Part shown: positions 1 to 51,591 of the stretch, in pieces
How the letters are laid out: each line of letters opens with the position of its first letter
Numbering within the stretch: position 1 is the stretch's first letter
Source of the DNA: Spirochaetia bacterium
GTDB lineage: Bacteria; Spirochaetota; Spirochaetia; UBA9216
DNA: 64,000 nucleotides
Assembly: GCA_963675665.1 (NCBI GenBank)
Contig: OY776510.1
Span: 139,840 to 203,839 of the forward strand
Reading direction: 5' to 3'
Translations under genes and position numbers: made by a program
Notes under the pieces: model-generated
Databases searched by the model: none
What the model was told of the DNA's origin: nothing
The model's input: only the letters and a program-made list of their open reading frames with translations

Positions 1-46
1 GAAGTTCCGGGTTTTGGGAAAGTCCCGGAAACTTCAATCTTCACTA

Positions 47-1210
47 TTAAATAACCGGCCCAAGGCAGTAAAAGTCCATGGACTTTGTATATCTGATGGC
101 CTCGCCCTTGTTGGTTTCTCCGGAAGCAATCCTGAGAAGCAGTTCAAAGGTTTCCTCGCCTACTTCCTCTATGGATTTTTCACCTGTAACAATTCGTCCG
201 GCATTTATATCCATATCACCCTGCATACGCTCGTAGGTAACAGGATTGCCGCAGATTTTAACAACCGGTACTACAGGAAATCCCTGGGGGGCGCCGCGGC
301 CTGTTGAAAAAAGAATTACCTGGGCCCCGCCGACGGCCATTCCGGAAAGAAGCTCTATTTCACGGCCCGGCGAATCCTTTATCCAGAGGCCTTTTCCTGA
401 GGGCTGCTGCGTATAATCAATCACACCTTCAATTGTTTTTGAGCCTGATTTCACGATTGCACCAAGTGATTTTTCCTCGATTGTACTGAGCCCGCCTTCT
501 ATATTTCCCGGTGTAGGCTGGCCTTTACGCATGTCGACACCAATCGCTTTTGCACGGGCTTCCATTTCGTCTACAATCCGCTTGATTTCCGAAGAGACAA
601 AATCGTTTTTTGCCCGTCTCTGCAGAATATGTTCCGCTCCTATGAATTCCGTAGTCTCACCGAATATTACGGTTCCGCCCAGATCTACAACCTTGTCCGC
701 AACATATCCGATAACCGGGTTTGAAGCCACACCGGAGGTTGTATCGGAAGCGCCGCATTTTATACCCATAACGAAGGTCGACATGTCAACCTCAGTTCTC
801 TGCTGACCGGAAATCTGCATTACAAGTTTCTGGGCCTTATCAATCCCTTCCTTGATTGCAATACTTGTTCCGCCGAGTTCCTGGATATTTATTCTCTCTA
901 CAGGTTTGCCAGTGGCCCTGAGTTCGGCTTCAAGCCTGTCGGTATCAACTCCTTCACAGCCGAGACTGACAATCAGGGATGCGCCGACATTGGGGTTTTT
1001 ACCTATGCCTATCAGACACTCGGTAATCCTTTCAAGATCAGGAGGCGTCTGGCAGCATCCCTGATGGTGAATAATCCCCTGGGTCATAACTGTATTCGCC
1101 ACAATGCTTTCAACTACCTCATTCGCACATACGACCGAAGGTATTACCGCAACATGGTTCCGACTGCCTACAGAGCCGTCTTTTCTGATATATCCTGTAT
1201 AGGTAATCAT
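47..1210 (-). CDS. uxaA: UxaA-family altronate/galactarate dehydratase, large catalytic subunit (C-terminal part of a split UxaA)
   Basis: The 387-aa product starts with MITYTGYIRKDGSVGSRNHVAVIPSVVCANE, typical of the region that follows the SAF domain in UxaA/GarD hydro-lyases. Together with the upstream 105-aa SAF ORF it makes about 492 aa, close to single-chain UxaA length. The two ORFs overlap by 4 nt (ATGA). Confidence 0.8.
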   Translation of the reverse strand: MITYTGYIRKDGSVGSRNHVAVIPSVVCANEVVESIVANTVMTQGIIHHQGCCQTPPDLERITECLIGIGKNPNVGASLIVSLGCEGVDTDRLEAELRATGKPVERINIQELGGTSIAIKEGIDKAQKLVMQISGQQRTEVDMSTFVMGIKCGASDTTSGVASNPVIGYVADKVVDLGGTVIFGETTEFIGAEHILQRRAKNDFVSSEIKRIVDEMEARAKAIGVDMRKGQPTPGNIEGGLSTIEEKSLGAIVKSGSKTIEGVIDYTQQPSGKGLWIKDSPGREIELLSGMAVGGAQVILFSTGRGAPQGFPVVPVVKICGNPVTYERMQGDMDINAGRIVTGEKSIEEVGEETFELLLRIASGETNKGEAIRYTKSMDFYCLGPVI

Positions 1211-1524
1211 TCTGCTGCTCCCTCTTTTTCCCAGTCTCCGCGTCCGCGGATACTGTCGATGTTTTGAATGTGCACATGCTCTCCGGGTTTAATAGGCTTT
1301 GTTGCGATTCCTATTTCTTCACCGTATTTTGTAACCTGCTCTTTTATCCCTATTTCTTTCAGGGCAATTTTATGCCCATAGGGAATATCATTGAGTACTT
1401 TAACCTCAAAACTGTTTCCGTTCTTTTCCATTACGGTCACAGCGCTTCCTGCCGAAGCAGTACCGAACAGGGTTGCAACATTGTCATCATCATGATTTTT
1501 TATTGCTTTTACCATTTCCTGCAT
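1207..1524 (-). CDS. SAF-domain small subunit of UxaA-family dehydratase
   Basis: 105 aa, MQEMVKAIKNHDDDNVATLF...HVHIQNI, resembling the SAF/N-terminal domain of altronate dehydratase. It is translationally coupled to the large subunit through an ATGA overlap. Confidence 0.75.
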   Translation of the reverse strand: MQEMVKAIKNHDDDNVATLFGTASAGSAVTVMEKNGNSFEVKVLNDIPYGHKIALKEIGIKEQVTKYGEEIGIATKPIKPGEHVHIQNIDSIRGRGDWEKEGAAE

Positions 1525-1526
1525 TA

Positions 1527-2801
1527 CTATGCTCTCCTTACTATTACGCCGACACCGTCGGGGATAACCGTTATTCCAGCATCTTCGCCCTTTAAACTGC
1601 GTGCTGTACTTAAAGCATCCTCTATGGAATCAGCGTAGATAAAATTCATCTGTTCAACTGTTTTTTTGTCCAGACCATCCGAAACAAGAATTATCGTGTA
1701 TCTGCAAAGAGCATCTGAAAATCTCTGTGCACACCATTGTTCCGATATTGTCTTCTCAGGCGGGATCAAAAGAATTCGCTCCAGCAACTCCTGCGGCGGC
1801 GCCGACAGCATTAATTCACCGAAATTTTCGCCGCCTAGCCCCTCTGAACATTCGGCGGCCAGTATTATTACAGCATTCTCATTGGCACAGGCCAGCGCCG
1901 CATCAAGACCTTTCGGACATTGATAAAGGTTTTGATCAAGCGGATAGCCTCCGTTTGAAGTAACGACAATATCGGCCTTAACGGCATCTACCCCGCACCG
2001 GTCCATAAGGCTTGCACAGCCTGCCTTATGGGCTTCCCCGACATCGCCGCAGTAGGCTTCGATAATTTTCTTTTCATCATCAAGAAGAACGTTGCATATA
2101 AAAGCCAGATTCGCCATGCGCGCCGCTCTTATCATGTCCTCGTGAATCGGATTACCGTCCAGAACTCCTGTTGCCGCACCCGAATGTTTTATCGCATCCG
2201 CGCTGTGATTGATATTTACACAGTCCTGAGAGGCAATCCCCGGCAGCACACTTTTTCTGCCGCCGGAGTATCCTGCAAAAAAATGAGGTTCTATGAAACC
2301 TTCAGCTACAAGCAGATCAGCCTCTATGGCAATTTTGTTTATCTCGCATTTGCTGCCCGACGGCAGAGTTCCAAGGTTTATGAAACTGCTTTTATCGAAC
2401 GCATTATGATTAAGAATCTTCTCATTCTCAAAGATCTCGTCGCTGAAACGTTCCCTCATTTCTTCTTCAGTCATTCCCCGGTGCAGACCGGTTGCTACAA
2501 GAATTGAAATGTCGGCATCCGGGTTGCCTTTTCTTATTTCATCCAGCAACAGGGGCATTGTTATTCTGCTTGGAACAGCCCTTGTATGGTCGCTGGTAAT
2601 AATCACAATCTTTTTTTTACCTGCCGCCAGGGTATGGAGAGGTTCCGTTCCGATCGGATTCGCCAGAGCTTCAAGAACAATCCCACTTTCGGATAAATCC
2701 GAAGGCACTGCCTCTCCGCCTGTTAATACCGCTTTCAGATACCGCTTCTCGAGTTCACATTTAATTGTTCCCCGACCGTATACAAGATTTATTTGTTCCA
2801 T
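1527..2801 (-). CDS. LarA-family nickel-pincer-nucleotide-dependent 2-hydroxyacid racemase/epimerase homolog
   Basis: The 424-aa product is collinear with Lactobacillus plantarum LarA as I recall it: SDHTRAVPS (His108 region), HFFAGYSGGRKSVLPGIAS (the cofactor-tethering Lys184 motif), NINHS (His200 region) and SNGGYPLDQNLYQ. Its stop lies 3 nt from the start of the SAF subunit gene. Confidence 0.8.
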   Translation of the reverse strand: MEQINLVYGRGTIKCELEKRYLKAVLTGGEAVPSDLSESGIVLEALANPIGTEPLHTLAAGKKKIVIITSDHTRAVPSRITMPLLLDEIRKGNPDADISILVATGLHRGMTEEEMRERFSDEIFENEKILNHNAFDKSSFINLGTLPSGSKCEINKIAIEADLLVAEGFIEPHFFAGYSGGRKSVLPGIASQDCVNINHSADAIKHSGAATGVLDGNPIHEDMIRAARMANLAFICNVLLDDEKKIIEAYCGDVGEAHKAGCASLMDRCGVDAVKADIVVTSNGGYPLDQNLYQCPKGLDAALACANENAVIILAAECSEGLGGENFGELMLSAPPQELLERILLIPPEKTISEQWCAQRFSDALCRYTIILVSDGLDKKTVEQMNFIYADSIEDALSTARSLKGEDAGITVIPDGVGVIVRRA

Positions 2802-2903
2802 ATATCAATGTTCCATGTGTTATGCATCATGTATACATTATACCTGAAAAATAAATCCTGTCAAATTCTTTAGTCATTCAAACCGAAAACTCTATCCTGA
2901 ATT

Positions 2904-3578
2904 TTACTTAAGAAGGGAATTATTTTTAATATTGCGAAGTATTTCTTCTCTGGCAAGGGTCAGATGATTATCGCATGACGCAACAGCGGCGGCTTTATCC
3001 TTTTTCAGCAGATTGTCGATAATATCGGTATGCTCCCTGATGGAGTCATAAAACCGGTTCTGTTTTGACAAAGCAAGAACCCTGAACGGACTCACCATCA
3101 TGGAAACCTTATCAAGGGCTTCTTTTATTACCTTGTTACCGGAAATCTCAACAAGATACTCGTGAAACTCAGCATCTGTCGCAAGGTATTCCTTCATATC
3201 AGAAATATCACCATGCTCAATAAAAGTTTTCCTGAATTTCTTAAGCCGGGATATAATGCTGTCGTCCAGTTTGTCAACTATCTTCTCAACAGCAAATTTT
3301 TCTATAATCAGCCTGAATTCATACGACTCATTAATGTCCCGTACCGTAAACTGTTTTACACAGACATATTTATTGGGAATACTCTGAAGAAAACCTTCCC
3401 CTACAAGCTGATTGATTGCATTTCGAACAGGAGACCTGCTTACTTCCAGTTTTTCGGCGATCTGGACTTCCTGAATACGTTCACCGGGCTTGAGCTCACC
3501 GTTGAGAATGCCCGCTTTAAGGACTTCATAAACCTGATCTTTAATTGTTGAAGCTATTTTTGTATTACCAATACCCAT
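2904..3578 (-). CDS. GntR-family transcriptional regulator (FCD-type C-terminal domain)
   Basis: The N-terminus has a winged HTH (VYEVLKAGILNGELKPGERIQEVQIAEKLEVSRSPVRNAINQL) followed by a helical effector domain. I chose the internal ATG (MGIGNT...) as the start because the HTH then sits at its typical position. The longest ORF would start at 3605. Confidence 0.7.
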   Translation of the reverse strand: MGIGNTKIASTIKDQVYEVLKAGILNGELKPGERIQEVQIAEKLEVSRSPVRNAINQLVGEGFLQSIPNKYVCVKQFTVRDINESYEFRLIIEKFAVEKIVDKLDDSIISRLKKFRKTFIEHGDISDMKEYLATDAEFHEYLVEISGNKVIKEALDKVSMMVSPFRVLALSKQNRFYDSIREHTDIIDNLLKKDKAAAVASCDNHLTLAREEILRNIKNNSLLK

Positions 3579-3620
3579 GAATAAACAATAAACAAAAAGA
3601 ACCATCTGGGCAAGATAAAA

Positions 3621-4910
3621 TTAATTATCGTCCTCTTCCTCAAAAACCATATCGTAAAGAGTATGATGCCGGTTAACCTGAAAGCCGATTACTGCCGCAA
3701 GACCGGCAGGAAGACTGTAATACATGCCGAACAATTCGATCGTCAACACACTTACAGCAATCGGCGTATTCATCGTACTTGAAAAAACTCCGGCAAACCC
3801 GGCAGCCAATAATGCAAAATAATTCGGGGTGCCGGCAGAAATGCCAAAGAATGATGCAAACGCAGCCCCGGCAAGAAGGCCTATGAGCATTGACGGGCCG
3901 GCAAATCCGGCGCTCATACCAGAGCCCACTGTCAGGGAATTAGCTGCCGCCTTCAGGATCATAAGCAGGATTATAACCAGGAAAAGAGGCGCCGAATTGC
4001 TTATATTACCGTAGAGAAGATTGAAATCGCCCTCAAACACCGCCCTGAAAATATCGGGGCTTGTTCCGGCCAGAGCGGGATTTAAAAAATATACTGCAAA
4101 GAAAGCTGCGGTTGAACCGATTACCGCACGGACGGCAACACCGCAATGGGAAAGCTTGTGATCACGGTGAAACATGCGTGAGACCAGCGCGTAAAGCAAT
4201 GTAAAGCCGCGCCCTGCAAAACCTGCCGCAACGCTGAGCAGCAGAATAATTCCAGCTATTCGAAGATCGATCAATCCCCCGACGGCGTTCAGTGAAAACA
4301 TGGGCTTAAAACCAAAAAACCTTGATGTATAAACACTTACCGTGCTGGCAAGAATCGCCGGAAAGAGCTGCCTGTAACGCATACTGGATTTCTGCATAAT
4401 TTCCACGGCAAAGATTCCTGCGCCTATCGGGCTGTGAACAAGCGCGCCGAATGCCGCGGCAAGCCCGCAGATTGGAAAAAGCGGTTTGTGTTCCGCTGAT
4501 ATTATTTTACCGGGAATAATCCTGTACAGTGCAGACATTATACCGGCGGAAACCCGCCCGCCGGGACCGAGGAATCCCCCGTTTCCGAATGTTCCGAGCG
4601 TCAATAGCGCTGCCCAAAATTTAAAAAATGTTTCCGAGACGGACATTTCGCCGCCTCTTTCCCTCAGGCTTATAATATACGAAGGCATTCCTTCGCCCTT
4701 TGCCCGCGGTTCTATCCTGTAGATTAGCAGGCTGACTACTGCAGCTCCGGCCACCGGCCATATAAAAACCGGAACCGCGTTTACCGATCTTAAAAAACCC
4801 GACAGACAGCCGTAAAAAGCAAGAAATATATGAATAGTGATACTTCCTGTAATGCCGGCTATACACGCGATGATCAGCCATTGAAACAGAAAAATATATG
4901 ATTTTTTCAT
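3621..4910 (-). CDS. ClC-family chloride channel / H+-Cl- exchanger
   Basis: 429 aa with about 10 TM segments. It carries ClC-like selectivity motifs (KGEGMP, GGFLGPGG, GxFAP-like) and repeated G-rich helices. Confidence 0.65.
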   Translation of the reverse strand: MKKSYIFLFQWLIIACIAGITGSITIHIFLAFYGCLSGFLRSVNAVPVFIWPVAGAAVVSLLIYRIEPRAKGEGMPSYIISLRERGGEMSVSETFFKFWAALLTLGTFGNGGFLGPGGRVSAGIMSALYRIIPGKIISAEHKPLFPICGLAAAFGALVHSPIGAGIFAVEIMQKSSMRYRQLFPAILASTVSVYTSRFFGFKPMFSLNAVGGLIDLRIAGIILLLSVAAGFAGRGFTLLYALVSRMFHRDHKLSHCGVAVRAVIGSTAAFFAVYFLNPALAGTSPDIFRAVFEGDFNLLYGNISNSAPLFLVIILLMILKAAANSLTVGSGMSAGFAGPSMLIGLLAGAAFASFFGISAGTPNYFALLAAGFAGVFSSTMNTPIAVSVLTIELFGMYYSLPAGLAAVIGFQVNRHHTLYDMVFEEEDDN

Positions 4911-4935
4911 TCAGCTGTGCAATTCCTGATTCATT

Positions 4936-7101
4936 TCAGAATTTAAGCTTGCTTCCAAGCGTACTTTTTAATGTCTCCGCGGCATCTTCCGCGGCCTTTT
5001 CAACCTCATCGGGGACCGCATCCTGAAGCAATTTTTCCGCCTGTTTTGCGATATTGTCCTTTACCGACTGTTCAATTTCAGCAATTTTGTCATCAGCCAT
5101 CGATCTGTATTTATCGAGTTCCTGTTCATAATTTCTGATTTTATCAGCATAGGACTCAAACTGCTCCCTTGCCGAATCGAACTCCCGGAGCGGTTCTGCG
5201 AGCTCAGCGTCCAGATAATCCTTCAGCATCTGTAACCCCTCATCAGCGCCCTCTTTCAGCATGGCTGAAGCAGCATTGCCGAGGCTGTCATCCAGTTCGG
5301 TTTCAACCGAAATATCAAAACCGGTGCTATCGTTCCAGGTAAAACTGCCGATCGCCGTCAGGGGTTTTACCGATTCAAGGCTGGTGTTGACAAGCCTGTA
5401 TAAAAGTCCCTCCGGTTTTTCTGACTCGAGATTAAGCTCAACTGCTTCCAGACCGAAATCACCGGCAAATCCGTCTTCGTTCCACCCAAGGCCACTGTCA
5501 AGCGACAGCGAACCGGAAAATACGGAAATATCAAGCGCCGACAGGCTGCCGCCCAAATCAAACGGCACGGAAGGCACATCAAGCGTAAGGCTGCTCTCGG
5601 TAATCAGGGCTTCCGCGGCTCCTGTCGCCGGGGTATCTATCCCGATTTCGAGGCTGGTTTCGTTTTCCCATTTGTCCGGTTCGCTTACCAGATCATTTAA
5701 AGACAGGTTATAACTCAACCCTGGCTCTTCACCGGAAGCAAAAGCATGAACCAGAACAAAGCCCGGCGGGGCGTCTGCCGGAGGGGGAAGACTTCTGCCG
5801 GGCCTTCTTTTCTCCGGAGACTTTTCCTTTTTAAGATCTGAAAGACGTTTAAAACGTCCGTACCACTCAAGGCCGCGATCCAGGTACGACAGGTATTTCT
5901 GAAGCGGTGCGGACAGCTTTTCTTCAAGAATTGAAGCCGCCCAGTCAACCTTCTCACCGGCCGGCAATGTAACAAGACCTTCAATATAGTCATAATCGTT
6001 CGAGATTGCAGTCTTTATTGCATCAATCATTGATGAGGCTTCATTAATCCCGGCTTCAACGGCAGCCAAATCGTTTGCTGCGGATGAGTAATCCTGTTCC
6101 GCATCATTATATATCTTTTCAAGCTTTGAGATTGTGGACTGTGCGCTTTCAAGGGTCTGAAAGGAACCGGCGTTTACCGTTTTGATGTAATTAACGGAAG
6201 TCTCCCAGCCGTCAATCCTTGATTCCCATTCCCCGGCCTTGCCCTCCCACTGCCCTGCGTAGCCTTCAACTTTCATCTTTGAATCTTCAAGAACTGTAAA
6301 ACTTTCAAGGTTTTCCTTCTGCTGCGCAAGAATCTCTTCAACGTCGATTTCCCCGGCAATGGCCCCAAGCTGGTTGACAACATCCGTAATGGAATCCTTT
6401 CCGGCAGACACCAGTTTCCCGGCGGCCCCCTGCTTCTGATTTCCGGAAGACGCCTTGTCCGAATCTTCCGGTACAGCATCTCCGTCTTTGTCCGCAGGCG
6501 CTCCCGTTTCGGGAGCAGGAAGCAGCCCTGATTCGGCTCTTTCAGTGCCCCGCTTCAGTCCTGAAAACCCAAGCTCCTCTATAAGAACCCGGCCCTGAAG
6601 AAGTTCCGCCGTATCAAGATCAGCAGTAACCGATGAACATTCAAAAAGATTTTTCATAGGGTTCTGCGCGTCCGCTACAGCAAAGTATTCGAGCGAAAAT
6701 TCACCCTTGAAGATTGAAAGCTCAACGCCGTCCGTATCAACCTGTGCGAGAAATATCTTTTCAAGTTGAGTTTCCAGCAATCTCTGAACAAGCATATTCT
6801 TCAGATAGAATTCAAAGAAGACTATACCGCCTGCAACAATCACCAAGATAAAGATGAGTATGAAATTAAGACGCTTCCTGTTCTGTTTTATCGCTTTTCC
6901 GAGGGCTTTCAGTCGTTTCAGATCTTTTTTGGACAAACCCTCTGCATTCACCCTTACCATGCCGTTTTCTTCAACCAGCAGCGATTCAAGAAATTTCCGG
7001 TCCTCCGGCAGGTAAATTTTCTTTATATACTTTTTTTCCCATTTCTTCTTATCAACAGCCTTTGAAAATATTCCGGGCGCTTTCCTTTTTTTATCAGCCA
7101 T
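4936..7101 (-). CDS. Large membrane-anchored coiled-coil protein of unknown function
   Basis: 721 aa. It has a Lys-rich N-terminus, a single TM segment (LNFILIFILVIVAGGIVFF), then long acidic coiled-coil regions. It lies immediately downstream of the DUF2062 gene. Confidence 0.5.
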   Translation of the reverse strand: MADKKRKAPGIFSKAVDKKKWEKKYIKKIYLPEDRKFLESLLVEENGMVRVNAEGLSKKDLKRLKALGKAIKQNRKRLNFILIFILVIVAGGIVFFEFYLKNMLVQRLLETQLEKIFLAQVDTDGVELSIFKGEFSLEYFAVADAQNPMKNLFECSSVTADLDTAELLQGRVLIEELGFSGLKRGTERAESGLLPAPETGAPADKDGDAVPEDSDKASSGNQKQGAAGKLVSAGKDSITDVVNQLGAIAGEIDVEEILAQQKENLESFTVLEDSKMKVEGYAGQWEGKAGEWESRIDGWETSVNYIKTVNAGSFQTLESAQSTISKLEKIYNDAEQDYSSAANDLAAVEAGINEASSMIDAIKTAISNDYDYIEGLVTLPAGEKVDWAASILEEKLSAPLQKYLSYLDRGLEWYGRFKRLSDLKKEKSPEKRRPGRSLPPPADAPPGFVLVHAFASGEEPGLSYNLSLNDLVSEPDKWENETSLEIGIDTPATGAAEALITESSLTLDVPSVPFDLGGSLSALDISVFSGSLSLDSGLGWNEDGFAGDFGLEAVELNLESEKPEGLLYRLVNTSLESVKPLTAIGSFTWNDSTGFDISVETELDDSLGNAASAMLKEGADEGLQMLKDYLDAELAEPLREFDSAREQFESYADKIRNYEQELDKYRSMADDKIAEIEQSVKDNIAKQAEKLLQDAVPDEVEKAAEDAAETLKSTLGSKLKF

Positions 7102-11552: not shown

Positions 11553-12232
11553 AAGTCTCACGGCTTCTGCAGCATGAAGCTCCATAGTGTTGAAAACAGG
11601 GATATCAACATCTTTCTGTTTTATCAGCAGCGGGATTTCCGTACAGCCCAGAACAACCCCTCGGCGCCGGCCTTTTCCAATTCGGAGATTATATTACGAA
11701 AAAGATCTCTTGACTTGTCCTTTAACTCGCCGAGGCAGAGTTCATTATATATCACGCTGTGAACAATATCCATCTCGCTGCTTTCAGGAATAATTACATC
11801 TATACCGTGCCGGTCTTTTAACCTTCCCCTGTAGAAATCCTGCTCCATGGTGAACCTGGTGCCGAGAAGCCCTACGGTATGAAATCCGCGACGTTTTATT
11901 TCTTCGGCTGCGGCATCGGCAATATGAAGCAAAGGTATACCAATGTTTTTCTGCACGTCATCAGCCATTTTATGCATCGTATTTGTACATATCATAAGCA
12001 TATCCGCACCCGCATTCTCCAGCATGATCGCAACCTCAGTCATCTGCCTGCTGAGTTCACCCCAGTCTTCTTTATGCTGGAGGGCTTCAATTTCTTCAAA
12101 ATCAACAGAATACATCAAAGTCTTTGCCGAATGAAGTCCGCCGAGCGCTGATTTGACCCCGGTATTCAGCAGCCGGTAGTATTCAAGAGAAGACTCCCAG
12201 CTCATTCCGCCTATCATTCCTATTGTTTTCAT
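11532..12232 (-). pseudogene. Asp/Glu/hydantoin-racemase-family amino-acid racemase (YgeA/RacX-like), interrupted by a -1 frameshift in a poly-G run
   Basis: The ORF 11624..12232 encodes MKTIGMIGGMSWESSLEYYR...AEG, then leaves the family pattern (LFWAVRKSRC*). Inserting one G into the cccc run at 11657..11660 (gggg on the coding strand) restores GVVLGCTEIPLLIKQKDVDIPVFNTMELHAAEAVRLSIREAV*, which matches the conserved C-terminus of E. coli YgeA (GVIFGCTEIGLL...LPVFDTAAIHAEDAV) as I recall it. The restored frame ends at 11532. Confidence 0.7.
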
Positions 12233-25558: not shown

Positions 25559-26491
25559 CTATAAAGCACCGATTTTAATTTTTACTCCGCAGTCTCTGCC
25601 GATATCAACAAGGTACTGCAGATCTTCCTTCTTTACAGGCTGCAAATCATGCAGTTTGTATTTCCTTCCAAGGCCTTTGTATTTCATGTTGCCGAGCCTG
25701 TGATACGGAAGGATCTCTATCCAAAGCAAATTCTTCAATTTCGAAGCCCATTCGAAAATTTCGCGCTGAATATCCGGCTGATCATTAATTCCGGGAATGG
25801 AAGGAACCCGTATAATCATTTTCTTATTGAACCCGTCCAGTTTAATGATATTTTTAAGAATTTGATCATTATTGACGCCGGTATACTTTTTATGAAGAAC
25901 GCTGTCACTGTGCTTAATATCAACATAGATCAAATCAGCGTCCCGTAAAATGTGTAACGAGCTGTCTTCGTTAGTGTAGAGACATGTTTCAACTGCAACA
26001 TGAAAATGATAGTCTTTGCAGGCTTTAATCAGCTCTGCTAAAAACTTTGACTGAAGAAGAGGTTCTCCCCCGGAAAAAGTAACACCCCCTCCTGATTCTA
26101 TATAAAAGTCCCGGTCTTTTAAAACTTCCGCCATAACCTCGTTTACGGACATTTCCCTGCCTGTAAACTCGCGCGCACCGTAATAACATGCGCTTACACA
26201 CTCGCCGCATAATACGCATTTTGAAAAATCTGTATAAATTCCGTATTTATCATCGTACCGAACAGCCCCGACCGGACATTTTTCAACACACCGACCGCAT
26301 AGACTGCATTTATTGGGAAAGTATATAATCTGCGGTTTTTTTATCTGAGATTCGGGATTTGCGCACCAGTCGCATCTTAACGGACAGCCCTTCATAAAAA
26401 CAACCGTCCTTATTCCCGGGCCGTCTTCAAGACCATAACGTTCAATATTAAAAATTATACCCTTCATCTGCCCCATCCTGCTTTCAGGCAT
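25559..26491 (-). CDS. Glycyl-radical enzyme activating enzyme (radical SAM, with two extra ferredoxin-like clusters)
   Basis: It has GCPLRCDWCANPES (CxxxCxxC) plus CSLCGRCVEKCP and CVLCGECVSACYYG. It overlaps the 3' end of the GRE gene by 8 nt. Confidence 0.85.
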   Translation of the reverse strand: MPESRMGQMKGIIFNIERYGLEDGPGIRTVVFMKGCPLRCDWCANPESQIKKPQIIYFPNKCSLCGRCVEKCPVGAVRYDDKYGIYTDFSKCVLCGECVSACYYGAREFTGREMSVNEVMAEVLKDRDFYIESGGGVTFSGGEPLLQSKFLAELIKACKDYHFHVAVETCLYTNEDSSLHILRDADLIYVDIKHSDSVLHKKYTGVNNDQILKNIIKLDGFNKKMIIRVPSIPGINDQPDIQREIFEWASKLKNLLWIEILPYHRLGNMKYKGLGRKYKLHDLQPVKKEDLQYLVDIGRDCGVKIKIGAL

Positions 26492-28895
26492 TTACCTCCG
26501 CCCTTCCGATAAGATCGTCCTGGCAGGCGCTGTCCAGCAGGGTGAACAGACAGCTGTATCCGGAAACCCTGACCATCAGGTCTCTGTACATATCCGGATT
26601 GGCTTTTGCGGCCTTCAGGGTTGAATTGTCAACAACATTGAACTGGATCTGCTGGCCGTATTTATCAAAAAACACCTTTATCAGCGCGGCAATCCGCTTC
26701 CGCCCTTCAAGCGATTTCAAAATACCGTTTGCAAGCCTCATATTCAGTATGGCGCCCTTCTGGAACCATTCCGTCGGCATTTTACTGACGGAAAGCACTG
26801 TGGCAGTTGCACCCATTTTCTCCGCCCCGTTGCACGGTGAAATACCGTTGTTGACCGGCTGACCGGCTTTTCTTCCGTCGGGAGTTGCTCCGATTAACTT
26901 GCCGAACGCAACATTTCCGGTAACGGGGCTGATATTGGTTGAGAAACACCCGGGAACCGGTCCTTTGCCGTACCTTGAATTCCTGAAATCCTTGTGAAAA
27001 CTGCTGCCTATAAAGTCGGCGATTCTTACAGACCATTTATCAACTGAATCTTCATCGTTTCCGAATTTAGGAGCCTTGTTTATCAGAAGCTGCCTTATTT
27101 CCTCACCGGTTGGAGATGTTGTCGTATCCTCGAAATTTGAGGACAGGGCATGCATCAACTGCTCTGAGGTTACCAGATTTTTATCAAATACAGCGTATTC
27201 GATTGCCCCGAGAGAATCTCCGGCTGTATTTATTCCGGCTGTCGGCCCTCCGTCTGCGGAATAAACGGAACCTCCTTCAATCAGTGAAAGCCCCCGCTCT
27301 ACGCAGTCTGCTATCAGCGATGATGAAAACGCGTTTATGTCCCGTTCCCTGTGCAGGTCGTCGCTGATATGTTCCATGATAACAATCAAACTCATGTAAT
27401 AATTCAGCTGCTTTTTAAACGACTCGAATAATTCTTCAGTACTTTTCAGTTCAGTCAGATCTCCGTCGCCGGGCAGCAGGGTTATTCCTTTAGCAGGGTC
27501 CGTCCCGTTATTCAGGGTTATTTCGAGGACCTTTGCGATATTTAAGCCGCCGCCTTTTGCCGCAAAATCCCATTTTCCCGGAATAGAAGCTTCAATGCAT
27601 CCTACCGGGGCCCAGTTTACGGCATCTTCACGGCTAACCCCCATACCTGTAAGGGTTCGTATGAAAGCCTTGTCATTATAGAATGCAGGCATACCGCCTT
27701 TATGCTTCTGTACAGCCTCCAGAGCCCTTGTTATAAAACCGTCATCGGTACCTTCAAACCACTTAACGGAAAGTGATGACGTAAAAAGCTTTACATCCTC
27801 ATAGGCTTCGATACAGAGCCAGGAAAGATCATTAACAGCGTCCTTTCCGTCAACGGTCTGTCCTCCGATGGAAAGATTTATTGCCATATGGTAATTCGGC
27901 ATCATCTGGGTTTCATCCCAGCAGCGCAGTTTATTCAGCGAATTCATTTTTATAACGAACAGTTCAATTAATACAAGCGCTTCCTCTCTGCTCAAAGAAC
28001 CGTCTTCAATGTCCGCTGAATACAGCGGATACAGGTACTGATCAAATCTACCGACAGAATTTGAATGACCGTTGGACTCAATATAATACATCAGAAGTAT
28101 GAACCAAACGCTCTGAACACCTTCCCTGAAATTCCGCGCGGGATTTTCCGGGACGTTCGCACAGCTTTCCGCCATTCGCATCAGTTCCGCTTTTCTTTCA
28201 GGATCCTTTTCCTGTTTCGCTTCTTTCAGACATAACTCTGAATAGCGATTTGCAAACCGGATAACAGCTTCATTTGAGATAACAACGGCATTTAAAAACC
28301 AGTGTTTTTTTATTGCATCCGGCTGCGTCAAATCGAGTTCTTCAAGCTTCTTTTTTGCATGATTGATAACATATCTCAATCCCTTCCTGACGACCAGCTC
28401 AAAATCAGGAAGCATATTCCCCAGAGCTGCAACTATAACCCAGGTATTGTCTATTACGCCCATCTCCCAGGCCTGAGTGCATTCAGGCGGCAGCCGTTTT
28501 TTATAGCTTTCAAAAAGGGTCTTTCCTTCCCAGTATTGTATTATTTCCAGCAATTCAGCCCTTACTTCGTCGCTGCAGATGAACCTGTCGGCAGGTCTCC
28601 GGTCCAGCGGATAGGGGATCCCGTTAAGATCATTTTTAAGCCATTCGGTTGAATATTCAGGGTAGATAGGTGCAGCCCAGGGCCTGCTTGTCTGATTGCC
28701 GACAATAAGTTCGCCTTCCGATACAAAAAGCGACATATTATCAAGTACATTTGCAAATGCCTTTGCTCTTCTTACCGCTATATTTTCGCCCTCGGTCTGC
28801 TTCATTGACTGTGTAAAAAACCTGGCCCTTTCGCTGCAGATTTCGGGTACTGTTTCAAAAAAACGGCTTCGTAAACTTTCGATTCTTGTATCCAT
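26484..28895 (-). CDS. Glycyl radical enzyme, eliminase/dehydratase class (PFL2/glycerol-dehydratase-like), substrate unknown
   Basis: 803 aa. The C-terminus has RVSGYS (Gly radical). There is a single-Cys loop VGCIEASIPG (Cys-x-Glu rather than the Cys-Cys of PFL). The N-terminus, RIESLRSRFFETVPEICSERARFF, is like GRE dehydratases. Confidence 0.85.
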   Translation of the reverse strand: MDTRIESLRSRFFETVPEICSERARFFTQSMKQTEGENIAVRRAKAFANVLDNMSLFVSEGELIVGNQTSRPWAAPIYPEYSTEWLKNDLNGIPYPLDRRPADRFICSDEVRAELLEIIQYWEGKTLFESYKKRLPPECTQAWEMGVIDNTWVIVAALGNMLPDFELVVRKGLRYVINHAKKKLEELDLTQPDAIKKHWFLNAVVISNEAVIRFANRYSELCLKEAKQEKDPERKAELMRMAESCANVPENPARNFREGVQSVWFILLMYYIESNGHSNSVGRFDQYLYPLYSADIEDGSLSREEALVLIELFVIKMNSLNKLRCWDETQMMPNYHMAINLSIGGQTVDGKDAVNDLSWLCIEAYEDVKLFTSSLSVKWFEGTDDGFITRALEAVQKHKGGMPAFYNDKAFIRTLTGMGVSREDAVNWAPVGCIEASIPGKWDFAAKGGGLNIAKVLEITLNNGTDPAKGITLLPGDGDLTELKSTEELFESFKKQLNYYMSLIVIMEHISDDLHRERDINAFSSSLIADCVERGLSLIEGGSVYSADGGPTAGINTAGDSLGAIEYAVFDKNLVTSEQLMHALSSNFEDTTTSPTGEEIRQLLINKAPKFGNDEDSVDKWSVRIADFIGSSFHKDFRNSRYGKGPVPGCFSTNISPVTGNVAFGKLIGATPDGRKAGQPVNNGISPCNGAEKMGATATVLSVSKMPTEWFQKGAILNMRLANGILKSLEGRKRIAALIKVFFDKYGQQIQFNVVDNSTLKAAKANPDMYRDLMVRVSGYSCLFTLLDSACQDDLIGRAEVNA

Positions 28896-34383: not shown

Positions 34384-35325
34384 TCATTGGCCGCTGCCGC
34401 CAACACTTACCATAAACCCAAAATCCGTGAGAATATTTGCTGTTTTTGTAATCTCTTCAAGGCTTATCCCCTGCTGGTTTTTAAAACTGTAATCCTTATC
34501 CAACCCTTCCCATTTTGTCTCTCCGGCCTGATGGAAAGGCATCAGATGTATTTCCTCAATTCCCGCAGCTTTACAAAAGTTCCCCATAGTCTCAATTTCC
34601 CGTGTCGAATTGTTTACACCGGGAATTAAGGGATATCTTACAATAATCTTTTTCCCCTTGTCCACGGCATCACGTAAATTTTGCCGGATCAGCTTGTCAT
34701 CAACTCCTGTATATTCTCTGTGCATATCTGCATTCGGGTGTTTAATATCAAAGAGTATTAAATCAGCGGGAAGGATAACACGACGAAAATTTTCAGTTGA
34801 AGCATACCCACAGGTCTCTATTGTGATATGGATATCGTCTTCTTTCAGAGAAATTATAAGCTGTTCCGCGAAAATACTTTGTAAGGTTACCTCCCCGCCG
34901 GACAGCGTAACACCGCCGCCGCTGTTCATATAGAAAACAAGATCGCGACTGACAATTTCTCTGAGCTCATCAACCGTATAAAATTTCCCTATCAGCCTCC
35001 GCGCCTCCGACGGACATACTTTTGCGCACTCACCACAGTCGGTACATTTTAAACGATCAGTTATCAGTTTTTCATCACTGATGTATATTGCGTCAGATTT
35101 ACAGACTTCGGCACACTTTCCACAACCGATACAGGCATCCTGATCATAAATTATTTCAGGCATCATTCTGAACGTTTCAGGATTATGACACCATTTACAC
35201 CTAAGAGGACACCCCTTGAAAAAAACTGTGGTCCGGAGCCCCGGACCGTCATGGACACAGTATCTCTGAATATCCGAAATTACAGCAATGGTGCCGGATT
35301 TTATTCTATCTTGCTCCCTCATCAT
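34384..35325 (-). CDS. Glycyl-radical enzyme activating enzyme (second copy)
   Basis: It has GCPLRCKWCHNPET plus CIGCGKCAEVCKSDAI and CTDCGECAKVCPSEA. It overlaps the GRE2 stop by 4 nt. Confidence 0.85.
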   Translation of the reverse strand: MMREQDRIKSGTIAVISDIQRYCVHDGPGLRTTVFFKGCPLRCKWCHNPETFRMMPEIIYDQDACIGCGKCAEVCKSDAIYISDEKLITDRLKCTDCGECAKVCPSEARRLIGKFYTVDELREIVSRDLVFYMNSGGGVTLSGGEVTLQSIFAEQLIISLKEDDIHITIETCGYASTENFRRVILPADLILFDIKHPNADMHREYTGVDDKLIRQNLRDAVDKGKKIIVRYPLIPGVNNSTREIETMGNFCKAAGIEEIHLMPFHQAGETKWEGLDKDYSFKNQQGISLEEITKTANILTDFGFMVSVGGSGQ

Positions 35326-37598
35326 ATACCATGCTTTACCCTTTTTATCATAATATCCTGATGCATCTTCGGCAGTGCGACAAAATACCCCGAATACCCC
35401 CCTATGCGCACTCTGAGCCCCTTATAAGCCTCCGGTTGTTTCTGGGCATTACGCATCATTTCCTCACTGACTCCGGTAACAGTCAAGATGTTTCCTCCCA
35501 ACTCCATAAAGGAGCGGATAATTCCTGTTAGCCTTTGTATCCCTTCATCACCAGCTGCCTCATTTGCATTAATTTGTATATCCAGCGGGCAACCGCCGAA
35601 ATACGGCAGAAGATCCGGCTTGGTGCATGATAAAATAGCTGCTGTCGGACCGTTTGTATCACAACCGACTGACGGAGAATAATTACTGGATATTGTGGTT
35701 TCTGCACTGCGTCCGTCCGGAGAAGCCCCGCAGCGACCTCCCAATTTTGCGTAATGCTCAAATGTGCCCAACGCGAGAGGAAGCATCATCTTCGGGTCTT
35801 CCGCCTGTAAATCCTTCACATAAGCAGCTAAATCACCCAATATACGTATCATCAGCTCATCCGCATAATTATCATCGTTTCCGAATTTTAAGCCCCTTGA
35901 TGCAAGTGTTTCACGAAGAACCTCATAACCTTTAAAATTTTCACTGGTAGCATTTATTATCTGCTTCATAGTGAATTTATTTTCCTCAAAAACAAATTTC
36001 CTGATTGCGGCAAGAGAATCGACGGTATTTGCCATTCCGGAGATTATAGGCGGATACATCATATACCTGGCCCCGCCGTTCGTAATATCCAGACCGTTTT
36101 CAATACAGTCGTCAATAAATATCGACAGCATCGGGTCCGGTGCGATTGTGCTGTGCACCCCGTAGATATTTCTTCTTGTTCTGATTCCATCGCTTATCGC
36201 TTTCTTCATATGGGAAAGATAAGCATCATACAGCTGCTCAAAAGCCGTAAATTCTTTCGCATCCCCGGTATCGAGCTCACATTCTCTTGTCTTCCGAACC
36301 AGGCTGCAGCCGTTATGAAGCGTATATTCCAGCTGTAGAAGGGATTCAATATCAACATGGTTGTGATCAGTACATCCGGGGATAAGCGTTTCCCAGCACC
36401 CGTCATTTGAATAATCGCGCGCATCCTCCAGCGGCACGCCCTTTTCGGTAAATCCCGGTATTATTTTTTCATCATTATAAATGGCAGGTTCGCCGCTTCC
36501 CGAACGCAGTATTCGTGCACATTCCTCATATAAACGCGGTGGAGATCCTTTAAAAAACCGGACTGACATCACTGGAGCTATCAGTTCAAGCTTATTCCAT
36601 AACCGCAAGATCATATAAGTCAGCTCGTTTGTCGCATCGTTGCCATCCCTTTTCTGACCGCCGATTATTGCATTCATAAACCAGGAATTTGCTCCGATTC
36701 CGTAGTTCCCGGTTCCGGGCGCAGTAAAATACGGAGGGACCTTTTCTGAAAGATCGATAGCCTTTCCGCCCGGGGCAAAATCCGTTACCTCTGCATGGCT
36801 TTCCCAGGAATCCGGACTTGTCTGGATGCGTTCACTGAATTTTGCAAGCCAGGAGGCTAAAAGCTCTTCCGCATATTCCTGTGATATCAAACCGCTTTCA
36901 GTGTCCTCTTTATAGAAAGGATAGAAGTACTGGTCGCAGCGCCCGACAGGAATCAAATCCATTGTGGATTGGAGGGCAATATAAACAATCCAGAAACACT
37001 GTAATGCTTCATGAAGCGTCTCCGGCGCATTTTCCGGTGTTTTTTCAAGGATCCTTGCGATTTCCAGAAGTTCATTGCGCCTGGCTGCATCGGATTCATT
37101 CAACGATTCAAACTGCGCGATTTTAGCGTAACGTTGAGCGAAACGTTTCAGGGCATCCAGAGATATAAACATCGCTTCATATTCAGATATCTTTCTTTCA
37201 TCACTTTCAAGCTTTAATTTTTCTAAAATCTTTTCACGATAACCATGCAATCCAAGCTTTAGAAGCTTCTCAAAATTTATAGGCAGATGAGCCCATACAG
37301 AGTTTACCCCGACCCCTTTTTTTGCTGCCTCCTCTTTTTCTTCAGGGGTGGCATATTCAGGGAATTCACGTCCCAGTTCGCTGCTGGCCATTCCGGCGAT
37401 GCCGACAATCAATTCGTAAGGTCTGATATATGCCGGCATGTTATTTATCATTAAATCTATTGCCATTGCCTTGCGTATAACAATCGGCAAAGATCCGGCC
37501 TTTTCGTCCGTCAATACAGTGAGCTCACTGCCCCACCATTCTTTTTTTTCTTTGAAACCGTCAAACATGCTTTTTTTTATTTTTTCTATTCTGGTCAT
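35322..37598 (-). CDS. Glycyl radical enzyme, eliminase-class, with non-canonical radical loop (second copy, 758 aa)
   Basis: It is collinear with GRE1 (Cys loop DGCWETLIPG aligned to GCIEASIPG). The C-terminus reads LRVRIGGYSGYF rather than the canonical RVSGY. Confidence 0.75.
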   Translation of the reverse strand: MTRIEKIKKSMFDGFKEKKEWWGSELTVLTDEKAGSLPIVIRKAMAIDLMINNMPAYIRPYELIVGIAGMASSELGREFPEYATPEEKEEAAKKGVGVNSVWAHLPINFEKLLKLGLHGYREKILEKLKLESDERKISEYEAMFISLDALKRFAQRYAKIAQFESLNESDAARRNELLEIARILEKTPENAPETLHEALQCFWIVYIALQSTMDLIPVGRCDQYFYPFYKEDTESGLISQEYAEELLASWLAKFSERIQTSPDSWESHAEVTDFAPGGKAIDLSEKVPPYFTAPGTGNYGIGANSWFMNAIIGGQKRDGNDATNELTYMILRLWNKLELIAPVMSVRFFKGSPPRLYEECARILRSGSGEPAIYNDEKIIPGFTEKGVPLEDARDYSNDGCWETLIPGCTDHNHVDIESLLQLEYTLHNGCSLVRKTRECELDTGDAKEFTAFEQLYDAYLSHMKKAISDGIRTRRNIYGVHSTIAPDPMLSIFIDDCIENGLDITNGGARYMMYPPIISGMANTVDSLAAIRKFVFEENKFTMKQIINATSENFKGYEVLRETLASRGLKFGNDDNYADELMIRILGDLAAYVKDLQAEDPKMMLPLALGTFEHYAKLGGRCGASPDGRSAETTISSNYSPSVGCDTNGPTAAILSCTKPDLLPYFGGCPLDIQINANEAAGDEGIQRLTGIIRSFMELGGNILTVTGVSEEMMRNAQKQPEAYKGLRVRIGGYSGYFVALPKMHQDIMIKRVKHGI

Positions 37599-37635
37599 AT
37601 TGCTCTCCTGATGTTTAGTTTCATGCCTGCTAAGA

Positions 37636-39531
37636 TTACTGCTGACTTATATACTCCCCGACCCAGTCAAGATTTAAGGACATCAGGCGGGTTTTTGAAG
37701 GCTCACCTTTTTCTCCGACCCACCCCGCCATTTCGTAATACTGCTCTCTTGTTTCATTAAAATCGGCTTCATTAACGACCTTCCCTTCCGAAATACCATC
37801 CGCTAAAGGAGTCGACAGTTTAAGCGGTAATTTATCGTCATCCTTATCAAATCCTTCGCGGATATTGAATGCGCGCATCATCTGCAAACCGCGCTCTCCA
37901 ACCATCAGCATCTCGTAAAGATTTGTTTCCCACCCTGTCGCAAAGTTGATAGCGTCCACCAGTTCATCAAAGCTGTACGCTCCGCCGAAACCGAATATCA
38001 TAATGCATACCGATGCTGTATCAACCAGAGCGTATGCTCTTTGAGTCCGCCAGAACAATTTCGCTTTTTCGGAGTTAAGCTCATCAGGAGCTTCAATCCT
38101 GTCGAATCCAAAACTTTTCAGCCTATTCGACAGAGGATAGGTCCCAAGGCTCGGATCCATTTCCACTGAAACATGATCCGAGCCGAAAGATACCAATGCA
38201 TATGACAACCCTAAAACGGCTTTAGTCTGCGGCATATGCGCAGGAAACTCTTTCTTTTTAACCGTGATTAAAAGCTTACTGCTGTTATTTCCGAAAATTC
38301 CGGAAAGCCTCTCCGAGCCGAGAGCGATAAGCTTGCCGAATCCAGTTCCAGTACCAGTCATTTCAGCCAACCGGATTACTGATTCGGAATTACCGAAATG
38401 GCAGTCGAATCCTTCCGTATCTTCCGCAGTGATAATTCCCTTCTCAAAACATTCCATGATAAAGCCCATTGTTGCACCGAACGAGACTGTATCCATTGCA
38501 TACATGGCGCAAATCTCATTGATTTTACAGATAGCGAGCTTATCGGATATCCCGAGATTGGAACCGCACATTCCGATTGTTTCATATTCAGGTCCACCGT
38601 ACTTTGCATCTATCCGGTCGGTCTTGCTTTTGTCCACATGACGCTTGCAGCTTTGTGCACAGGCATAACACGTGCCCGGTTTGATTATTTCTTCATTCCA
38701 GGCTTCCGGCATCAGTTTATCAACATTTTCGAATGTTCCTGATGTCCAGTTTCTGGTCGGCAATCCCCCCAGGGCGGAATTTTCCACAACACAGCCTATT
38801 GTTCCGTTCTGTTTGAAACTCTGAAGACCGACGCTTTCACGTATTCTGTTAATTCCCTTCCGGGCAAAGATTTTCATACCTTCCGGATCAAAAAAATCCG
38901 GTTTCTGCGTTCCGCGAACGGCAATGGCTCTTAAATTCTTGGAACCCATCACCGCACCGAGCCCCCCCCTGCCGTTAAAATGCGCAAGTTCATTTACAAT
39001 ATTAGCGTATCTACACAATGTTTCGCCCGCGCAGCCTATTTGTGCTACTCTGATTTTTTGATCTTCATGATAATTTCTGATATGTGCTTGCGCTTCTCCT
39101 GTTGTTTTTCCCCATATTTCCGCTGCATCAAGCAGTGAATATTCTCCGTCACAGATCCACAGATACGAAGGAGTTTCCGCTTTTCCGGTCAGAACTATCG
39201 CATCAAAACCGGCTTTTTTCATCTCAGGCGCAAAGTAACCGCCGCCCTCACTTGTCGCAATCCCGCCGGTAAGCGGAGATTTGGCTGTTACGGAATGCCT
39301 GGAAGCACCGGAAATATTTGATCCTGTAAGCGGACCGACTGTAAAAGCAATAACATTGTCCGGCGATAATGGATCAACACCCTGTTCTGTTCCCTGCATT
39401 ACATAGTAAACACCCATACAGCTGCCGCCGACATACTTACGATAGAAATCTTCATTTGGTCTTTCTATTTCAAATTTCTGTTCAGTTAAATTAATATGCA
39501 GTATTTTACCGTTGTATCCTTTCATCCTCAC
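37636..39531 (-). CDS. Tungsten-type aldehyde:ferredoxin oxidoreductase (AOR family)
   Basis: 631 aa. The N-terminus MKGYNGKILHINLTEQKFEIERPNEDFYRKYVGGSCMG is typical of AOR. It carries multiple Cys for the 4Fe-4S cluster. Confidence 0.8.
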   Translation of the reverse strand: MRMKGYNGKILHINLTEQKFEIERPNEDFYRKYVGGSCMGVYYVMQGTEQGVDPLSPDNVIAFTVGPLTGSNISGASRHSVTAKSPLTGGIATSEGGGYFAPEMKKAGFDAIVLTGKAETPSYLWICDGEYSLLDAAEIWGKTTGEAQAHIRNYHEDQKIRVAQIGCAGETLCRYANIVNELAHFNGRGGLGAVMGSKNLRAIAVRGTQKPDFFDPEGMKIFARKGINRIRESVGLQSFKQNGTIGCVVENSALGGLPTRNWTSGTFENVDKLMPEAWNEEIIKPGTCYACAQSCKRHVDKSKTDRIDAKYGGPEYETIGMCGSNLGISDKLAICKINEICAMYAMDTVSFGATMGFIMECFEKGIITAEDTEGFDCHFGNSESVIRLAEMTGTGTGFGKLIALGSERLSGIFGNNSSKLLITVKKKEFPAHMPQTKAVLGLSYALVSFGSDHVSVEMDPSLGTYPLSNRLKSFGFDRIEAPDELNSEKAKLFWRTQRAYALVDTASVCIMIFGFGGAYSFDELVDAINFATGWETNLYEMLMVGERGLQMMRAFNIREGFDKDDDKLPLKLSTPLADGISEGKVVNEADFNETREQYYEMAGWVGEKGEPSKTRLMSLNLDWVGEYISQQ

Positions 39532-51579: not shown

Positions 51580-51591
51580 GATGTACTCCTT

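Follow-up and report, generated by a model that had tools for sequence, protein, structure and literature searches.

The locus described here raises the question of why a homologue of the nickel-dependent lactate racemase LarA is encoded directly beside a two-subunit dehydratase of the UxaA/GarD type. It lies in contig OY776510.1 of a Spirochaetia bacterium (positions 139,840 to 203,839), and the window, by which we mean this full 64-kb stretch, carries it at its low-coordinate end with the genes on the minus strand. An earlier note, made from the sequence alone, had proposed that the LarA paralogue epimerises a hexonate or hexarate at C2 to feed the dehydratase. Our analysis points to another answer: the locus is probably, though far from certainly, a compact catabolic module, spread by horizontal transfer, that serves a small 2-hydroxy carboxylic acid with a leaving group at C3. 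The gene order and coupling, the protein families, the intact active site, the membership of the LarA homologue in the LarAH42 clade, the synteny, and the conserved promoter and palindrome are established here.

The first gene in the direction of transcription encodes a GntR/FCD-family transcriptional regulator (2904..3605, minus strand; Pfam GntR 6.5e-16 and FCD 1.5e-21), for which the longest open reading frame (ORF) gives 233 amino acids (aa) and the start may be a later Met. After a spacer of 102 nucleotides (nt) follows the LarA homologue, a LarA-family nickel-pincer-cofactor 2-hydroxyacid racemase/epimerase of the LarAH42 subclade (1527..2801, minus strand; 424 aa; Lar_N 1.3e-67 and LarA_C 1.6e-50). 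Next come the SAF-domain small subunit (1207..1524, minus strand; 105 aa; SAF 4.5e-4) and the large catalytic subunit (47..1210, minus strand; 387 aa; GD_AH_second 1.7e-33 and GD_AH_C 2.3e-87) of a split UxaA/GarD-type dehydratase. Between the LarA stop and the SAF ATG there are 2 nt (TAG-TA-ATG), and the SAF and large-subunit genes share a 4-nt overlap, ATGA. The earlier note had correctly described a 424-aa LarA homologue with its motifs at this place, a regulator upstream on the same strand, now confirmed by Pfam, and a split dehydratase, both subunits of which are confirmed by Pfam and by coverage of the GarD model; it was also right on the adjacency of the LarA stop and the SAF start, and only its distance of 3 nt has to be corrected to 2 nt. 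The window edge is reached 46 nt past the large-subunit gene, and these nucleotides (1..46, minus strand) are the beginning of a 72-nt spacer toward a GntP-family permease gene outside the window. This continuation was read in L001, a strain whose large subunit is 99% identical, where the identical spacer runs on into a 458-aa GntP permease that scores 309 bits on TIGR00791 and exceeds the cutoff of 292.75.

The LarA homologue belongs to the LarA superfamily by its Lar_N and LarA_C domains, which extend over its whole length. It aligns full length with solved LarA structures (2yjg, 2e-129; 5huq, 2e-116) and scores 393-435 bits against these lactate racemases. The motifs SDHTR (R74), GLHR (H107), EPHFFAGYSGGRKS (H173, K183) and NHS (H199) are present, and the catalytic and cofactor residues are intact: D72, R75, H108, H174, K184, H200, Y294, Q295 and K298 in LarA1 numbering, found in the numbering of the window protein as K183, H199, H107, H173, R74, Y293, Q294 and K297. 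These positions are invariant or nearly so (122-123 of 123 members) in the clade to which the protein belongs. Specificity in this superfamily has been predicted from positions 175, 176, 358 and 359, which are F, F, W and E/Q in lactate racemases (T359 in LarA1) and E, V, A and H in gluconate epimerases, while malate racemases have Lys at position 359 (Urdiain-Arraiza et al., J Biol Chem 2024; PMC11770544). The window protein has F, F, W and C, which reads as a small hydrophobic pocket of the lactate-racemase type; the gluconate-epimerase pattern is absent, and Cys at position 359 departs from the strict lactate-racemase pattern.

This Cys marks a clade. Position 359 is Cys in the best 120 homologues, with Ser in four of them, and Cys or Ser stands there in all 123 clade members and in none of 24 further representatives outside the clade, which were drawn from a search over 1.84 billion proteins. 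Two neighbour-joining trees were built: the UxaA-linked LarA proteins and LarAH42 of Enterocloster asparagiformis form a clade with 100% bootstrap in a tree with LarA1 and the Thermoanaerobacterium LarA, and with 95% once the 24 further representatives of the lactate-racemase branch joined the tree. The clade signature is L107/P297/E356/C359 in LarA1 numbering, and the substitutions relative to LarA1 are V297P, D356E, T359C, F107L, I196V, M197N and I293L; the combination P297/E356/C359 is exclusive to the clade among the proteins compared. The LarA homologue lies within the lactate-racemase branch but in a separate subclade, apart from the characterised lactate racemases, with a remodelled pocket. 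The LarA proteins of Lactiplantibacillus plantarum (5HUQ) and Thermoanaerobacterium thermosaccharolyticum (2YJG) have the fold, the cofactor-binding and catalytic residues, F175, F176 and W358 in common with it, but form a sister clade and not the same one.

Could the protein nevertheless be an ordinary lactate racemase, so that its position beside a dehydratase is functionally meaningless? Its closest solved structures are lactate racemases, homologues are so named in public records, LarAH42 slowly racemises lactate, and the NCBIfam model for nickel-dependent lactate racemase (NF033504) gives 556.5 bits, above its cutoff of 460. This model is broader than its name, because LarAH42, a poor lactate racemase, scores 576.7 bits on it. 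Public records carry the lactate-racemase name for clade members as well, for which the name of NF033504 is over-specific (window 1527-2801; L003 931-2211). The separate clade with its exclusive active-site signature speaks against an ordinary lactate racemase, as the earlier note had supposed in treating the paralogue as something else.

LarAH42 is the clade member that has been assayed (PMC11770544). It bears Cys357 at the specificity position, and its kcat/KM values are 6e2 M-1 s-1 for 2-hydroxybutyrate, 2e2 for lactate, 12 for glycerate and 3 for 2,3-dihydroxybutanoates, as against 1e5 M-1 s-1 for LarA1 on lactate, so that LarAH42 is about 500 times less efficient on this substrate; LarAH43 of the same organism, with Gln at 359, reaches 1.1e5 M-1 s-1 on glycerate (PMC11770544). 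Activity of LarAH42 is not listed for longer acids, dicarboxylates or gluconate/mannonate, these two being the sole hexonates assayed, and sulfolactate was not among the assay substrates; the paper leaves the genomic context unmentioned and the physiological role open (PMC11770544). The activity pattern suggests that the native substrate likely lies outside the tested set, and the best listed substrates look like side activities. By use of the published cloning primer we located the LarAH42 gene in the type-strain genome; the gene found has the C-terminus MITKPVS and Cys at residue 357, and downstream of it lie a SAF gene for 96 aa and then one for a large subunit that retains the four Cys. 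LarAH42 is therefore like the window protein, to which it is 50% identical, in clade, pocket signature including Cys357, length, and downstream SAF and UxaA genes, and the window SAF subunit is 50% identical to the small subunit downstream of LarAH42. The Enterocloster triad differs in being preceded by TctA, PrpD-like, adenylosuccinate-lyase (ADSL)-like and enolase-superfamily genes in place of the GntR regulator of the window, and a GntP permease does not follow it as in the sister strain L001.

Both dehydratase genes together make up one enzyme. The SAF subunit covers positions 2-78 of the NCBIfam GarD model and the large subunit positions 106-486, and because these parts are complementary, the two proteins represent one UxaA/GarD-type enzyme cut at the SAF boundary; SAF, GD_AH_second and GD_AH_C, the domains of the UxaA/GarD group (COG2721), are all present on the two polypeptides. 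The large subunit matches the GarD structure 6u7l (1.2e-55), and its C28, C52, C84 and C151 align with four GarD cysteines. These four Cys are conserved across the UxaA/GarD superfamily with the exception of SuyAB, are proposed iron ligands (Cys134/173/208/276 of C785_RS13685), and SuyAB was the only characterised two-subunit member of the superfamily as of 2019 (Watanabe et al. 2019, PMC6336799). The large subunit is 65-80% identical to the partners of other clade members, 35% identical to GarD in the catalytic part and about 30% identical (117 bits) to SuyB of P. pantotrophus; the SuyA/SuyB sequences were machine-read from a figure by optical character recognition (OCR) with visible errors, so that identities to them are approximate and lower bounds. 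It is not a GarD orthologue, because it scores 224 bits on the GarD equivalog TIGR03248 against a cutoff of 730.85 (the small subunit scores 36.8). The window pair shares with SuyAB the two-subunit architecture of SAF and catalytic parts, but neither the Cys loss of SuyB nor close similarity to it; since it keeps the four Cys of true dehydratases, it is classed as dehydratase-type. The large subunit represents a distinct subfamily, neither SuyAB nor GarD orthologue. Compared with E. coli GarD (6U7L) and UxaA, the window enzyme has the same three domains and four conserved Cys but is divided into two polypeptides at the SAF boundary, and its substrate is presumably much smaller than that of GarD.

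The LarA-SAF-UxaA triad was found in all nine independent contexts examined, which span Spirochaetota, Synergistota and Bacillota. These contexts are the window with its sister strain (L001), reached via a large subunit 99% identical to that of the window (P0002); a second spirochaete (L002); Crassaminicella profunda (L005); Dethiosulfovibrio (L006); Treponema sp. OMZ 840 (L007); L009/L010, obtained via a LarA homologue (P0238) indexed in 356 blocks of the sequence collection; Tissierellaceae (L011/L012); and Enterocloster asparagiformis and E. lavalensis (L003/L004). Exact-sequence look-ups of the window LarA and of an identical large subunit (P0001) gave no database match. Seven of the nine contexts have a GntR/FCD regulator next to the triad, and five loci (L001, L002, L005, L006 and L007) have an intact GntP permease gene after that of the large subunit. 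Among the best 120 LarA homologues, 42 are on contigs equal in size to one bearing a best-120 large-subunit homologue. As a negative control we used P0364, the nearest representative outside the clade, which adjoins a DUF4147/MOFRL gene and has no dehydratase beside it. The adjacency of LarA and dehydratase is not due to chance. Functional coupling of the two under a GntR/FCD regulator, as the earlier note had assumed, thus gains support from synteny in three phyla, from translational coupling and from the promoter palindrome described below. For an ordinary lactate racemase such a conserved and coupled triad would not be expected, and the context typical of LarA1 and group 1 (larBCE, lactate permease, lactate dehydrogenase/electron-transfer flavoprotein genes; Desguin 2020) is not seen around the window triad; together with the separate clade and the poor activity of LarAH42 on lactate, this leaves that explanation most improbable.

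Several further genes were observed near the triads. In L015 (4742-7287), P0364, with Gln359 as in the glycerate-preferring LarAH43, stands right after its DUF4147/MOFRL gene and near ethanolamine-utilisation genes. DUF4147/MOFRL is a family that we take to be that of glycerate kinases, and this arrangement suggests a pair of glycerate racemase and kinase. In Enterocloster (L003 2353-7780; L004 5849-7984), an enolase-superfamily sugar-acid-dehydratase homologue and adenylosuccinate-lyase-like, MmgE/PrpD-family and TctA proteins are encoded before the triad, and a larger pathway may feed the triad there. An assignment of the ADSL-like protein as XcbD of coenzyme M synthesis was tried and not used, as it scores 489 bits (cutoff 600) and the adenylosuccinate lyase subfamily model gives a near-equal 475, also below its cutoff. 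Crassaminicella profunda has a second LarA homologue (L005 14805-16094) 3.6 kb from the module and beside an amino-acid ABC transporter; this homologue scores 529 bits on the LarAH10 family model, just under the cutoff of 540.

The hexonate proposal can now be weighed. It would have the LarA paralogue interconvert allonate and altronate, or galactonate and talonate, as a C2-epimerase of hexonates or hexarates ahead of an altronate- or galactarate-type dehydratase, with a kinase and an aldolase for 2-keto-3-deoxy-sugar acids encoded elsewhere. The best-known UxaA/GarD members do use C5-C6 sugar acids, the transporter belongs to the gluconate-permease family, enolase-superfamily sugar-acid dehydratase homologues occur near the triad in Enterocloster and L009, and the assays of LarAH42 took in gluconate/mannonate and no other hexonate. 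The D-gluconate 2-epimerases GntE1 and GntE2 (LarAH19/20) are of the same superfamily and invert C2 in a sugar-acid context, but they have the E, V, A, H pocket and belong to another branch of the tree. The window protein, with F, F, W and C, obtains 33.6 bits on the hexonate-epimerase model NF052594 (cutoff 500), and the large subunit is far from GarD. For LarAH42 the listed activity is confined to C3-C4 acids and takes in neither gluconate/mannonate nor anything longer than C4 (PMC11770544). A 2-keto-3-deoxy-sugar-acid kinase or aldolase is not consistently adjacent in the nine contexts. We accordingly regard the proposal as unlikely.

The two-subunit architecture calls to mind SuyAB, and a sulfolactate route, in which (S)- and (R)-3-sulfolactate would be interconverted by the LarA homologue and the SAF/UxaA pair would act as a sulfo-lyase of the SuyAB type, releasing pyruvate and sulfite, was our initial idea. 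The NCBI record of a metagenome-assembled genome gives one homologue (P0059) the name (2R)-sulfolactate sulfo-lyase subunit beta, known organisms racemise sulfolactate with two dehydrogenases (PMC11193023), and, as mentioned above, sulfolactate is absent from the LarAH42 assays. A parallel system bears on the matter. In Table S1 of Desguin et al. 2020, LarAH group 5, to which the weak malate racemase Mar1 of Desulfitobacterium hafniense belongs, has COG2721 'altronate dehydratase' as its commonest neighbour, and this neighbour is left undiscussed there. We examined two group-5 contexts, in Dehalobacterium formicoaceticum (L013 6521-13975) and Desulfosporosinus shakirovi (L014 5216-12503), and in both the LarAH5-type gene stands between a gene pair for SAF and large subunits and TctCAB, in the company of a GntR/FCD regulator. 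Their large subunits show 50% identity (332 bits) to the OCR-read SuyB, have lost the same three Cys as SuyB, and are 34-36% identical to the window large subunit. These LarAH5/Mar1-SuyAB-TctABC clusters of Desulfitobacteriaceae resemble the window module in having a LarA racemase, a GntR/FCD regulator and an organic-acid transporter, whereas the racemase itself is of a different lineage, 30% identical to the window LarA, with His-Lys at positions 358/359. This residue pair suits an anionic side chain, for example the sulfonate of sulfolactate. Sulfolactate is isosteric with malate, and the group-5 racemases are, on these residues and neighbours, probably single-enzyme 3-sulfolactate racemases, a kind that was not found in the literature searched.

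The initial idea was therefore rejected for the window. The anion-binding lineage goes with genuine SuyAB and a TTT transporter, and the Cys-pocket lineage goes with a Cys-rich dehydratase that retains the three Cys lost by SuyB and is only 30-36% identical to SuyB and SuyB-type proteins; neither a sulfite exporter nor a sulfite reductase was found in the nine contexts. A sulfolactate route is for these reasons very unlikely in the window. The pairing of Mar1-type racemases with SuyAB indicates at the same time that stereospecific lyases of this superfamily have repeatedly been combined with a racemase that supplies them. In Dehalobacterium the SAF/SuyB-like pair occurs twice, on both sides of the LarAH5-type gene (L013 6521-7961 and 9317-10757), and their large subunits show 100% identity to each other, a pattern suggestive of either recent duplication or an artefact of assembly.

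The control region of the window operon lies within the 102-nt spacer between the regulator and LarA genes. A sigma-70-type promoter of the larAH-saf-uxaA operon (2837..2864, minus strand), with TTGACA, 16 nt and TATAAT, agrees with the consensus at 12 of 12 positions and is the top site in 1..5000. Immediately past the -10 box there is a palindrome, ATGTATACAT (2829..2838, no strand), at a conserved position and in a single exact copy across the window; it is likely the operator of the GntR/FCD regulator. TTGACA-type promoters are found at the equivalent place before the LarA homologue in L001, L002, L007, L009 and L011. The box TGTATACA comes right after the -10 element in L001, L002, L005, L007 and L011, and L009 carries TGCATACA at this position, so that conservation of the box spans Spirochaetota and Bacillota loci. 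With an N-terminal GntR winged helix, a C-terminal FCD domain and the conserved promoter palindrome, the regulator fits the FadR/FCD type of the GntR family, and TGTATACA is likely a fitting operator for such a protein.

From these results we propose the following pathway for the small-acid module. The GntP-family permease, whose gene is just outside the window edge, would import the acid, and the LarA homologue would invert the configuration at C2 by its nickel-pincer nucleotide cofactor, which would make both stereoisomers available to a stereospecific dehydratase. The iron-dependent, two-subunit UxaA/GarD-type enzyme would act on one stereoisomer, and loss of the C2 proton together with the substituent at C3 would leave a 2-oxo acid (pyruvate if the substrate is C3) that would join central metabolism with no further dedicated enzymes. 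The GntR/FCD protein would repress the operon at the TGTATACA palindrome overlapping the promoter and would release it once the substrate, or a compound derived from it, is at hand. We infer the order of the two reactions and the repression by the regulator, and likewise a C3-C4, neutral substrate, X-CH2-CHOH-COO- or a close relative. Across the nine contexts no kinase, aldolase or dehydrogenase was consistently beside the triad, which would fit because the product would already be a central 2-oxo acid. Since a racemase is most useful if C2 is the sole stereocentre, C3 acids of the type X-CH2-CHOH-COO- are favoured. Because LarAH42 prefers 2-hydroxybutyrate over glycerate about 50-fold, X may be less polar than hydroxyl, by analogy with one homologue at 50% identity. 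As a tentative and more specific version, the four genes might convert both enantiomers of a 3-substituted lactate to pyruvate, with X a neutral group such as hydroxyl, thiol, alkylthio or halide.

Glycerate is an obvious candidate for such a route, the LarA homologue racemising L-/D-glycerate and the split dehydratase turning one enantiomer into pyruvate. It is the simplest 2,3-dihydroxy acid, its dehydration gives pyruvate without more enzymes, and it is racemised by enzymes of the lactate-racemase branch; a dedicated glycerate dehydratase was not found in the literature searched, where the main match was a directed-evolution screen for D-glycerate dehydratase activity. On the other side, LarAH42 is slow on glycerate where LarAH43 with Gln359 is fast, the Gln-type outgroup P0364 adjoins the DUF4147/MOFRL gene and not a dehydratase, and the clade has Cys for the polar residue and prefers 2-hydroxybutyrate. 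Glycerate as the native substrate is hence rather unlikely, although in a rough ordering it comes first among the specific proposals, ahead of hexonates, sulfolactate and a lactate racemase unconnected with the dehydratase.

Several points weigh against the small-acid module itself. Conserved adjacency is no proof that both enzymes use one molecule. The profile of LarAH42 may not transfer to the window protein because the two are 50% identical, and LarAH42 is poor on the very candidates with a 3-hydroxyl, glycerate (12 M-1 s-1) and 2,3-dihydroxybutanoates (3 M-1 s-1) (PMC11770544); its low rates may on the other hand be underestimates, because cofactor loading in vitro was unmeasured in that study. 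The peripheral genes vary, with TctA, PrpD-like, ADSL-like and enolase-superfamily genes in Enterocloster and an enolase-superfamily gene and a TRAP transporter in L009, and the substrate in these loci could therefore arise intracellularly from a larger compound. Conservation is the whole basis on which the box is taken as an operator. Finally, the cofactor genes larB, larC and larE are not in the window, as the earlier note had stated: LarB, LarC and LarE domains were not found by a Pfam scan of the 42 largest non-overlapping ORFs of at least 100 aa across the window (seven of which had no Pfam match), nor did a six-frame search of the window with LarB/LarC/LarE motifs give anything. Downstream of the triad in L009 (10821-13114), a 597-aa ORF without family match and a 169-aa LarC2-type nickel-insertion fragment were seen, and this fragment is the sole cofactor-biosynthesis gene beside any clade member examined.

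As to novelty, the earlier note had called the route undescribed. This holds for the present clade in the literature searched, but the link between LarA homologues and COG2721 is already in Table S1 of Desguin 2020 for another group. Literature searches for LarA with UxaA or sulfolactate gave only author names and unrelated gene lists, and no paper was found that joins lactate racemase to altronate dehydratase or to a UxaA family hydrolase, or that deals with a sulfolactate racemase. Already known, then, are all the part families, one assayed clade member and the LarAH-COG2721 association of the other group; what appears to be new is the recognition that the clade stands apart, bears its own signature and has an obligate partner in the dehydratase. 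Its regulatory box and the contrast with Mar1-SuyAB appear to be new as well. Because LarAH42 has a fixed two-subunit dehydratase partner, the search for its substrate is narrowed to 2-hydroxy acids with a beta leaving group. For this whole clade, the labels 'nickel-dependent lactate racemase' and 'altronate dehydratase large subunit' in current annotation are probably inaccurate in detail. A nickel-pincer racemase has come to be paired with a stereospecific UxaA/SuyAB-superfamily lyase at least twice in evolution, and the second pairing, Mar1-SuyAB, points to a one-enzyme sulfolactate racemase in sulfite-reducing Firmicutes. If the route to pyruvate is true, the split UxaA-type enzyme would be a lyase dedicated to beta-elimination on C3 acids (either a glycerate dehydratase occurring in nature or a new lyase acting on carbon-sulfur or carbon-halogen bonds) and the LarAH42 clade its dedicated nickel-pincer racemase; with Mar1-SuyAB this would amount to a general strategy of anaerobes for chiral C3 acids, in which a nickel racemase works with a UxaA-superfamily lyase. 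Should the substrate be glycerate or a similar C3 acid, the dehydratase could be useful for cell-free cascades that form pyruvate.

Other genes of the window were also recorded. An Asp/Glu-type amino acid racemase of 202 aa (11624-12232) gives a weak, sub-threshold match to the CuyB cysteate racemase (77 bits, cutoff 190). Two pairs of glycyl-radical enzyme and activase are encoded at 25559-28895 and 34384-39531 (enzymes of 803 and 758 aa, activases of 310 and 313 aa), the second pair being followed by an aldehyde:ferredoxin oxidoreductase; both glycyl-radical enzymes are under all NCBIfam equivalog cutoffs (hydroxyproline dehydratase, sulfopropanediol dehydratase, choline lyase). A 1516-aa ORF (41341-45891) with a BcrAD/BadFG-type ATPase domain and DUF2229 has the architecture of fused activators that serve 2-hydroxyacyl-CoA dehydratase-like enzymes. 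Two neighbouring giant ORFs of 1547 and 1809 aa (46936-57021) contain the bacterial Ig-like domains Big_7, Big_13 and Big_3_3 and probably encode surface proteins.

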